A DNA stretch of 64,000 bases from an uncultured Bacilli bacterium (GTDB lineage Bacteria; Bacillota_I; Bacilli_A; RF39; UBA660): NCBI GenBank assembly GCA_910577505.1, contig CAJTLN010000001.1:385223-449222 (forward strand), given 5' to 3'. Each line of letters starts with the position of its first letter. Within the stretch, counting starts at the first letter, position 1. A program made the translations under genes and the position numbers. A model generated the notes under the pieces. That model did not search any database and was not told the DNA's origin. It was given only the letters and a program-made list of their open reading frames with translations. Shown here piece by piece: positions 54,249-55,451 of this stretch.

Positions 54249-54319
54249 TATAACCCCACCAATTGAAAATATATATTAACATAACGATCACAAAAACACA
54301 ATTTCAAGATAAAAAAAGA

Positions 54320-54348
54320 TTGACTTCAAAATACAAAAAGTATATACT
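54320..54348 (+). promoter_or_regulatory. Near-consensus sigma-A promoter TTGACT-17-TATACT pointing rightward into an ORF-free region.
   Basis: ttgact tcaaaatacaaaaagta tatact. Divergent from the peptidase genes. Confidence 0.55.
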
Positions 54349-54354
54349 TATTAT

Positions 54355-55336
54355 AGTAAGGAGGTATACAGGAGATACTCTTATAAAACTTTAAAAATAT
54401 ATTCTAGGGCATAAACTTGAAATACAGTGAAAATATAAAGAAATTTATATTTCGTTTTGTGAAAGAATGTATATAATAATAGTTTTATAAACCTTTATAG
54501 TATGCAAAACTATAAAGAAATTCATTACCGCAAATAATGAATTATAAACTTGTAACATGTGTACTTGCAATACATTTGTATATTAACGATAGCTCGTTAA
54601 GCCCAACAAGTTATTCCAGTATGAGAAATCATAACTGAAGAGGGTATATAGTGTTACCGTATACTCTAGTATCAACTGTTAATCGTTAAATGGTAAACAT
54701 TCATCACCATTTAATCATTATTTAAGCAATTAAAGTACCAAGTTACCATAGTGGTATTGTTAATAGTTAGCATTTTCTATTAGCCAAAAAGGATAATAAT
54801 ATCATTGTGAAGTATTGAATTGCTTTCGTACTAGCACAGACTTTATCAAAAATAATAAAGTCGCAGGTATGTTATGCATTATTGTACATTTTTGTTAATG
54901 TATTATTTGATAATCTTGAATGAATTAGGATTATTAATTCTGAAAAAATGGAATATAATTCTATGGGACTTTAAGGTAGGATAGTAATACAAAGACGATC
55001 TGACCTCGTTTAATAATTGGAGAGTCTTAAACTTGTCTTGCAAGGAGAACCAAGCAATCCAAATGTTGAGCGTAAACCCTATTGGTTAGCTGCCGATAGG
55101 AAAGACGCAATATGCTATATCGTGGGCGCGTATATAAATAAAATTTAGCGATGAATTGGAGAACTCTTATACAAATGTATAGTTAAACGTGAATGCATAT
55201 TACTTGAATAGGTGAATTTAAATCACTATATTTATGAAACTATCAAAATAGTATTTAAAATTCATTCTGCTATACAGAAGTAAATTTTAAAACGAACAAA
55301 TGCAAATGAGAGAACGATTAGTGTTCTCTTTTTTTG
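54355..55336 (+). ncRNA. Candidate large structured non-coding RNA (~1 kb) of unknown class.
   Basis: No ORF of 60 aa or more in any frame across 54249-55451. Bounded by a consensus promoter and a strong intrinsic terminator on the + strand. Locally higher G/C. Several perfect local hairpins (e.g. ctttatagt-atgcaaa-actataaag; attcatta-ccgcaaa-taatgaat). Confidence 0.3.
55309..55336 (+). terminator. Rho-independent terminator ending the ORF-free transcript.
   Basis: agagaac-gattagt-gttctct followed by T7. Confidence 0.7.
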
Positions 55337-55451
55337 TACTTAAATATTTAAAAAACTATTGATTTAAGTGATAAGAAATTATAAAATGATAATAGGTAAT
55401 ATTGTATAAAGATACATGAGTTTATTATGGGAATAAAAAGGAGGAGTTAAT

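Follow-up and report, generated by a model that had tools for sequence, protein, structure and literature searches.

Large bacterial RNAs with complex folds and the RNA described here

To our knowledge, few bacterial RNAs that exceed 500 nucleotides (nt) and have complex conserved folds are known. Ribosomal RNA (rRNA), RNase P, group II introns, OLE, GOLLD, and ROOL have each proved to be a catalyst, the core of a ribonucleoprotein, or an unexpected RNA-only assembly. Here we analyzed a window of 64,000 nt from an uncultured Bacilli bacterium (GTDB lineage Bacilli_A; RF39; UBA660), taken from contig CAJTLN010000001.1 (positions 385,223 to 449,222, forward strand) of assembly GCA_910577505.1, and show that it contains a free-standing plus-strand gene for a noncoding RNA (ncRNA) of ∼980 nt (positions 54355 to 55336 of the window) that lies outside Rfam 15, possesses its own promoter and terminator, and is organized in two large domains. 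It very probably represents a new class of large structured RNA. The explanation that best covers the observations as a whole, and that we consider probable, is a gene of a new RNA family for which action in trans, a role for a 5′-terminal Shine-Dalgarno (SD) sequence, and self-association are inferred. At ∼980 nt, this RNA would be exceeded in size by few structured bacterial RNAs other than those of the ribosome, and the retention of a family of this length in small, tightly packed genomes makes it a strong candidate for another RNA machine.

Three described RNAs invite comparison. GOLLD (RF01998; ∼800 nt) assembles into a 14-mer nanocage (PMC12286853) and resembles the RNA described here in being very large, multidomain, seemingly protein free, without an assigned function, and transcribed from its own unit. 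GOLLD is typically phage associated and found near tRNAs, whereas the RNA in the window is chromosomal and syntenic, is absent from the viral and phage collections that we searched, is longer, and carries the SD sequence at its 5′ terminus. ROOL (RF03087; ∼580 nt), an octameric nanocage that oligomerizes through kissing loops (PMC12286853), is likewise ornate, with many covarying helices, and likewise comes from rumen and gut metagenomes with Bacillota and Tenericutes-like hosts, but our RNA is ∼400 nt longer, is not phage associated, and has a different conserved core. OLE (RF01071; ∼600 nt), a homodimer within a membrane ribonucleoprotein, shares with our RNA the character of a large, housekeeping-style chromosomal RNA of anaerobic Bacillota, while differing in size, where OLE is again the shorter, and in sequence. 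Genes for OLE-associated proteins (oapA and others) adjoin OLE. None of these was found at the loci of our RNA, where the neighbors are three M3-peptidase-like paralogues, a FIST gene, an aldehyde dehydrogenase gene, and nrdD. None of the three covariance models matches the RNA, and the family matches nothing known by sequence and structure; as a phenomenon, it stands beside the known large ornate RNAs.

A predicted transcription unit, conserved and without coding signal

The window is tightly packed and has a G+C content of 25%. Its longest stretch without an open reading frame (ORF) of at least 60 amino acids (aa) extends from 54249 to 55451 (1,203 bp) and the next longest is 490 bp, which bears out the observation in the initial annotation that this is the only ORF-free stretch above 1 kb. 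Because noncoding DNA in a genome of 25% G+C is expected to be without long ORFs, their lack alone is unremarkable; what stands out is how long the gap is (1.2 kb). Its length (1,187 to 1,239 bp), like the gene order, is maintained in relatives whose FIST proteins are only 66 to 71% identical. We retrieved these syntenic relatives as contigs encoding homologues of the downstream FIST protein. An alignment of the gap over five sequences has a mean column identity of 86%, and between the window and locus L012 the RNA diverges by 13% at the nucleotide level versus 26% for the adjacent FIST gene, so that the RNA region is conserved, as the proposal of an ncRNA in the initial annotation requires, and indeed more so than the neighboring protein gene.

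The signals flanking a transcript that were noticed from the initial sequence also withstood comparison. A sigma-A-type promoter (54320 to 54348, plus strand), consisting of a −35 element TTGACT at 54320 to 54325, a 17-nt spacer, and a −10 element TATACT at 54343 to 54348, is the best promoter-like site of the region (10 of 12 matches). All 22 homologues that include the 5′ flank have TTGACT (TTGACA in one) as the −35 element and TATACT or TATAAT as the −10 element, and the distance from the −35 element to the start of TAGTA(A)GGAGG is exactly 28 nt in the homologues while the sequence of the spacer varies freely. Fixed hexamers and fixed spacing around a variable spacer indicate selection on the promoter itself. 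The transcript is predicted to start at 54355 or 54356, 7 to 8 nt after the −10 element, and to end in the U-run of the terminator.

The intrinsic terminator (55308 to 55336, plus strand) reads GAGAGAAC-GATTA-GTGTTCTCTT followed by a T-run in the DNA and would form in the RNA a stem of GAGAGAAC and GUUCUCUU with a GAUUA loop and U7. The terminator scan returned 2 terminator-like sites against 0.6 expected. Nearly every lineage has, after ...AAAUGC, a homologous hairpin whose loop contains GAUUA and which is followed by a U-run. Covariation is seen in the stem of this hairpin (GAAGAAC/GUUCUUC to GAGAAU/AUUCUC). Since the GAUUA loop is conserved across the family, the terminator hairpin may itself belong to the functional RNA. 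Some loci carry an extra hairpin between ...AAAUGC and the terminator (L028, L032, L034, L029, L021, L031, L025, L022, L041, and L045), which reaches ∼18 bp in the L031 group. The interior is, as first noted, richer in G and C (G+C of 0.30 to 0.375 inside versus 0.205 to 0.225 at the edges). A conserved promoter and terminator enclosing sequence with no coding signal are what is expected of an independent noncoding transcription unit, and from them we infer that the region is transcribed, in line with the discrete plus-strand transcript of ∼1 kb proposed in the initial annotation.

The absence of coding signal deserves scrutiny, as a perfect SD sequence at the 5′ end and short plus-strand ORFs of 33 to 43 aa (54537 to 54638, 54874 to 54984, and 55017 to 55148) are what an mRNA, or a dual-function RNA, encoding one or more small proteins through that SD might look like. 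In none of the homologues, however, does ATG, GTG, or TTG lie at initiation distance from the SD, and the three short ORFs lose their start, gain stops, or shift frame in L013 and others. Each of the six frames contains 20 to 34 stops, and reading TGA as sense opens no long frame. Mismatches are spread evenly over codon positions (43/43/41, 50/69/59, and 33/35/35) compared with 69/48/185 for the FIST gene, and indels are mostly of 1 to 2 nt and thus shift the frame. The small ORFs, which the initial annotation had flagged for checking, therefore show neither conservation nor codon periodicity; together these results lead us to reject the coding hypothesis, and we regard a small-protein mRNA as very improbable. 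For RFN20, a different order of uncultured Bacilli with low G+C, reassignment of AGG to Met and of CGG to Trp has been reported (10.1101/2021.06.18.448887). Such reassignments leave stop codons alone, so the ORF analysis stands.

Relation to known families and distribution

No family of Rfam 15 (4,227 families) matched the RNA, either at the gathering threshold over the whole window or at E values up to 10 over 54100 to 55600, and nothing matched inside the RNA at E values up to 5 in seven homologous loci; the relaxed scans gave only matches attributable to chance, all located beyond the RNA; one coincided with the L021 terminator hairpin. Among the families that had been put forward for comparison, the models of raiA, HEARO, and group I and II introns found no match in the window or the seven homologues, and the same holds for RNase P, tmRNA, 6S, and SRP. 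The region contains no reverse-transcriptase or intron-protein ORF. The initial annotation had left the choice between a ROOL-, GOLLD-, or OLE-like RNA and a new class, and it is the second possibility that these searches of the window and the seven homologues favor. We found no description of the RNA in the literature on large ncRNA classes, RF39, and RFN20, including two 2026 genome-language-model preprints on intergenic elements.

Covariance models are less sensitive at 25 to 30% G+C and in very divergent lineages, and the style of the RNA, with many hairpins, long-range closing helices, and a palindromic loop, is similar to that of known large RNAs. A highly divergent member of a known family (for example, ROOL, GOLLD, OLE, RNase P, or a group I or II intron) could in principle have been missed for this reason. 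We nevertheless consider this quite improbable: the seven homologues that remained without a score are diverse, the association with phages or tRNAs seen for ROOL and GOLLD is missing, an intron is at odds with a separate promoter and terminator and with the lack of flanking exons and of an intron-encoded protein, and the length of the RNA fits none of these families.

A scan with a 20-mer pattern from the region found matches in 13 of 185,579 species-level genomes, all of them metagenome-assembled genomes, of which one is labelled Muribaculaceae and the others uncultured Bacilli, Tenericutes, Erysipelotrichaceae, or “Candidatus Coprovivens,” and an independent two-block pattern scan found 18 metagenome contigs. 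In nhmmer searches, every pattern match proved to be a homologue, and all were full length except where a contig ended within them, with lengths of ∼870 to 1,010 nt and identities to the window of 52 to 89%. The carriers all look like uncultured low-G+C Bacilli of the gut or rumen. The only named relative among them is “Ca. Coprovivens,” which corresponds to GTDB genus UBA11963 in order RF39, family CAG-1000 (PMC8035907). Within this clade of carriers, the RNA is under purifying selection. Two independent patterns gave 0 matches in viral_contigs, and BLASTN found no match among 50,697 phage records or in a plasmid collection; the only tRNA in the window is at 3900 to 3970, and the RNA is flanked by conserved chromosomal genes.

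One carrier contig (L032; CAZJHG010000001.1) is labelled “uncultured Muribaculaceae.” Its synteny is of the Bacilli type (M3-like paralogues, the RNA, FIST, aldehyde dehydrogenase, and nrdD at 92% identity), and for this reason the contig is probably misbinned.

Covariation supports a large plus-strand structure

We computed an RNAalifold consensus fold for 15 species from alignments that were MAFFT based rather than structure based. The fold comprises 194 pairs in 28 helices, and 87 of these pairs carry changes on both sides. Slid controls fall far below the observed values for cells paired (96.3% observed versus 33 to 44%), for pairs with double changes (87 versus 26 to 35), and for the covariation score (0.366 versus 0.07 to 0.09), and none of 500 shuffles reaches any observed measure. 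Covariation, proposed in the initial annotation as a test of the ncRNA, is thus strong. The window sequence alone has a minimum free energy (MFE) of −231.5 kcal/mol versus −183 kcal/mol for shuffles (z = −7.8). The consensus fold of the plus strand (−106 kcal/mol, 194 pairs) is much more stable than that of the reverse complement (−49 kcal/mol, 114 pairs), on which ground we rejected a minus-strand RNA, and cells with G-U outnumber cells with A-C by 402 to 12. With a length above 500 nt and many helices that show compensatory changes, the RNA has the features by which a large, ornate structured ncRNA is recognized; homologues, fold, MFE, strand asymmetry, and noncoding character all assign the gene to 54355 to 55336 of the plus strand.

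These results also bear on readings at the level of DNA. Long intergenic regions in reduced genomes are often remnants of genes, and a palindrome such as that described below could serve as an operator for a dimeric protein, so that the region might be decaying DNA (a pseudogene or a mobile-element remnant) or a protein-binding region. Selection on DNA cannot explain the 87 compensatory pairs, the G-U asymmetry, or the conserved promoter and terminator, and neither the slow evolution of the region relative to the adjacent protein gene nor the lack of matches in phage or plasmid collections suits a remnant. The covariation controls effectively refute this explanation, to which we assign a vanishingly small chance.

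The structured RNA supported by the controls consists of a 5′ domain, two intervening hairpins, and a 3′ domain. The 5′ domain (54368 to 54679, plus strand; helices 2 to 9) is closed by a long-range helix between 54368 to 54379 and 54668 to 54679 and holds hairpins at 54520 to 54542, 54555 to 54579, 54583 to 54600, 54617 to 54637, and 54641 to 54667. All 6 pairs of the closing helix segment 54374 to 54379/54668 to 54673 and 6 of 7 pairs of the hairpin at 54583 to 54600 have changed on both sides. Portions of the domain are absent in L030, L026, L035, L045, and L048, and because of these deletions its peripheral parts appear to be dispensable. The coming and going of peripheral elements between lineages is typical of modular structured RNAs.

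The hairpin formed by helix 10 (54680 to 54720, plus strand) is supported by covariation, with 13 pairs, 7 of them with double changes, and 98.5% of cells paired. Its loop (54699 to 54705) could pair with 54814 to 54820 in a candidate pseudoknot that came from a blind scan of column pairs for extra long-range helices. The pseudoknot has 96.7% of cells paired versus 24 to 64% in slid controls and 2 pairs with double changes, and it forms only 4 to 5 pairs in the window sequence; we regard it as moderately supported. Most other long-range helices from the blind scan were rejected as noise from misaligned divergent 5′ ends, and the pseudoknot alone, as 54700 to 54705/54814 to 54819, was kept. Helix 11 forms a long covarying hairpin (54747 to 54809, plus strand; 15 pairs, 8 with double changes) whose near-invariant loop GUUAGCAUUUUCUA at 54766 to 54779 is conserved in all 15 aligned species.

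The 3′ domain (54820 to 55283, plus strand; helices 13 to 26) is closed by a helix of 14 pairs between 54820 to 54835 and 55269 to 55283 and contains nested long-range helices (54864 to 54879/55193 to 55206), a variable arm at 54899 to 54991, and the most conserved core of the RNA at 55005 to 55200. In the variable arm (helices 16 to 18), 15 of 18 pairs show double changes, and the core includes invariant blocks of 32 nt and 30 nt. A recurring AATTGGAGA motif had already been noticed in the initial annotation; both copies are present, AATTGGAGAG at 55015 to 55024, 7 nt away from the approximate position of 55008 first given, and AATTGGAGAA at 55155 to 55164. Neither copy varies among the homologues, and the 3′ part of one pairs with the 3′ part of the other in a single helix. 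RNAalifold further predicts a possible helix that would close the ends of the RNA, pairing GUAU at 54364 to 54367 (plus strand) with AUGC at 55300 to 55303.

The most divergent full-length homologue (L035, 672 to 1656, minus strand) lacks ∼70 nt of the 5′ domain and keeps the promoter and the 5′ SD. Its variable arm has a tandem-repeat insertion with units like AAAGTTCAATA...GGAGAATT.

A conserved Shine-Dalgarno sequence at the predicted 5′ end

Comparison of the homologues shows that the 5′ end of the RNA, AUAGUAAGGAGGUAUAC (54355 to 54370, plus strand), is invariant or nearly so in all of them, the three most divergent having GUAGGAGGUA. This segment includes a perfect SD, AAGGAGGU (54358 to 54365), that would begin only 3 to 4 nt from the predicted 5′ end. 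Direct reading places the AAGGAGG first reported at this point at 54358 to 54364 and agrees that it is not followed at initiation distance by ATG, GTG, or TTG. The segment is modeled as unpaired in the consensus fold, no CCUCC or CUCCU able to mask the SD occurs anywhere in 33 homologues, and the duplex predicted with a Bacillus-type anti-SD has an energy of −14.5 kcal/mol.

A strong, accessible SD that lies near the 5′ end and lacks a suitably spaced start codon is the sequence pattern of a STAB-SD element. STAB-SD elements of Bacillus bind the 30S subunit and block 5′-to-3′ decay by RNase J1. As in these elements, the SD of our RNA lies close to the 5′ end and is not used for translation initiation; the known examples reside in the 5′ untranslated regions of mRNAs, whereas here the SD heads an ncRNA, is invariant throughout the family, and has a role that is deduced from sequence only. 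The elements, of which that of cryIIIA is an example, have been reviewed (PMC4113751, PMC3997798).

We propose that the 5′ SD, having neither a start codon nor an internal mask, would bind the 3′ end of 16S rRNA. Such pairing would protect the 5′ end from 5′ exonuclease in the manner of STAB-SD elements and might also tether the RNA to 30S subunits. We rate the chances of STAB-SD-like binding and protection, with possible tethering, as about even. A reported link between OLE and ribosomal protein bS21 (PMC12054373) is loosely reminiscent of the 5′ SD.

A palindromic loop that may mediate self-association

Within the core, a predicted hairpin at 55032 to 55054 (plus strand) has the stem CUUG/CAAG and a 15-nt loop with the palindrome CUUGCAAG (55037 to 55044), a candidate for a symmetric kissing loop. 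The 4-bp stem is invariant and the loop measures 13 to 15 nt across homologues, and a perfect palindrome of 6 to 10 nt is present in all 31 homologues that cover the loop. The six variants of the palindrome, (U)CUUGCAAG(A), CUUCGAAG, (U)UUUCGAAA(A), and UUGCAA, differ by a switch of the center from GC to CG and of outer bases from C..G to U..A, and self-complementarity is always kept. No other conserved palindrome of the RNA varies in a way that preserves its palindromic character. Self-duplex energies range from −4.5 to −13.3 kcal/mol. The palindrome might also have been a second register of the CUUG/CAAG stem, which we rejected because the UUUCGAAA variants cannot pair with the stem.

As adjacent bases cannot pair within one chain, the simplest reading of these changes is pairing between two copies of the loop. 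Kretsch et al. relied on the same pattern, in which neighboring loop nucleotides covary from one palindrome to another, as support for the symmetric kissing loops visualized by cryo-electron microscopy (cryo-EM) in OLE and GOLLD (PMC12286853). The OLE dimer has a symmetric kissing loop formed by a loop tetranucleotide that covaries among palindromes (GGCC, GAUC, and AGCU), and in GOLLD a loop dinucleotide switches from GC to CG while remaining palindromic, which supports a symmetric intermolecular kissing loop (PMC12286853). The palindrome in our RNA shows the same GC-to-CG switch as GOLLD, and its sequence behaves as that study describes for OLE bridge B3 and GOLLD bridge B8. We propose that the palindromic loop (55036 to 55050) would pair with the same loop of a second molecule and that the RNA would work as a symmetric homodimer or a higher oligomer, as do OLE, ROOL, and GOLLD.

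A further analogy, and one we draw as an analogy only, is the dimerization initiation site of human immunodeficiency virus type 1 (HIV-1), where a palindrome with the variants GCGCGC and GUGCAC mediates homodimerization by loop-loop contact. In both cases a hairpin loop bears a self-complementary palindrome whose variants stay palindromic; the HIV-1 site belongs to a viral genomic RNA and has a 9-nt loop with a 6-nt palindrome, compared with a loop of 13 to 15 nt and a palindrome of 6 to 10 nt here.

Genomic context and mode of action

In 12 of 14 species loci, the RNA immediately precedes the FIST gene on the same strand, and its terminator ends only ∼115 nt before the FIST start codon. Such an arrangement would be expected of a very long cis leader, a riboswitch array or attenuator that senses a signal and controls FIST and aldehyde dehydrogenase through the terminator. 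The obligate linkage expected of a riboswitch or leader is absent, however: L030 has the RNA without a FIST gene, in L025 another gene stands between the two, and L017 and L018 represent FIST-aldehyde dehydrogenase operons of other taxa that are without the RNA. The terminator is a strong hairpin, conserved in sequence, with a U-run, and we found neither a competing antiterminator nor an alternative pairing of the terminator in the consensus folds, although no dedicated search for mutually exclusive structures was made. The FIST gene also has a conserved promoter-like site of its own between the terminator and its start codon, outside the RNA (TTGATT-17-TAAAAT, 55359 to 55387, plus strand; score 9/12). 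Its TTGATT and −10 elements are kept in five close relatives, and the remainder of 55337 to 55451 is poorly conserved. A length of ∼980 nt with 28 helices is, moreover, far beyond any known leader. A cis leader is in our judgment improbable.

From the arrangements in L030 and L025, the RNA-less FIST operons elsewhere, and the separate FIST promoter, we suggest instead that the RNA would act in trans as a stable structural RNA and not as a leader of FIST.

The neighborhood is as first described, with a peptidase-like triplet diverging upstream and the FIST gene and nrdD downstream. The triplet consists of three tandem paralogues of 353 to 383 aa (50923 to 54248, minus strand) that had no match in Pfam, NCBIfam, or PADLOC, the last of which covers known defense systems. 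The family is an orphan, with 19 clusters among 5.8 billion proteins in a search that reaches only relatives sharing exact 5-residue words, and in the same search it was restricted to the clade of carriers. The proteins have an invariant HExxH..E motif (HExxH plus Glu), and their AlphaFold model (pLDDT of 90), although ∼180 aa shorter, is similar to M3 oligoendopeptidase F and Pz-peptidase. The triplet divergently adjoins the RNA in 11 of 14 species loci. As a functional partner of the RNA it was set aside, the link being unproven and the triplet missing from three RNA-bearing loci.

The loci compared here thus suggest that neither the FIST gene nor the peptidase-like triplet is an obligate partner of the RNA, which leads us to read the synteny, with some reserve, as inherited rather than functional.

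Several points weigh against the account of a trans-acting RNA with an active SD and a self-associating loop. The order of the RNA and FIST in 12 of the 14 loci may after all be a functional link and not inherited synteny. All sequences come from metagenome assemblies, and where the transcript starts and ends and how abundant it is are predicted. Because the scans covered only exact matches to two conserved blocks, the distribution given here is a minimum. Helices 19 to 22 of the core are almost invariant, so that covariation neither supports nor refutes them, and it is equally silent on the predicted end-closing helix, of which all 4 pairs are invariant in 15 sequences. The SD could serve otherwise, for example, as a protein site or in a tertiary contact. 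The evidence from the palindrome is thin, with few independent substitution events, perhaps two or three, and the hairpin, with its invariant 4-bp stem and loop of 13 to 15 nt, is likewise predicted. Binding by the weakest palindromes would also be weak (−4.5 kcal/mol for UUGCAA and −5.9 kcal/mol for UUUCGAAA). On account of the few substitution events, we put forward self-association through the palindromic loop tentatively, as somewhat short of an even chance.

The most ambitious version of the proposal would combine both elements in a new giant ornate RNA that forms a symmetric homodimer or higher-order particle through the kissing loop and docks on the 30S subunit through the 5′ SD. We regard this combination as possible but doubtful. 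If true, uncultured gut Bacilli with reduced genomes would have an RNA machine or scaffold of their own that is linked to the ribosome. The 5′-terminal SD and the covarying palindromic loop provide two testable handles, and the RNA is also a ready target for cryo-EM.

Other features of the window

Three further regions of the window attracted our attention. A gene-free stretch of ∼455 bp at 56610 to 57064, upstream of nrdD, has a similar length in relatives and gave no Rfam match at E values up to 1. Beyond the 773-aa nrdD (57065 to 59386), a 61-aa ORF at ∼59415 to 59600 has its own match to NRDD (PF13597) and is conserved in L001, L002, L012, L013, and L015; it seems that a C-terminal piece of the anaerobic reductase is encoded as a separate small gene. 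The second-largest ORF-free stretch (26675 to 27164, 490 bp) is without an Rfam match, and two short hydrophobic ORFs can be recognized in it by eye (∼54 aa from 26718 and ∼43 aa from 26922), so this stretch probably holds small membrane-protein genes rather than noncoding DNA.

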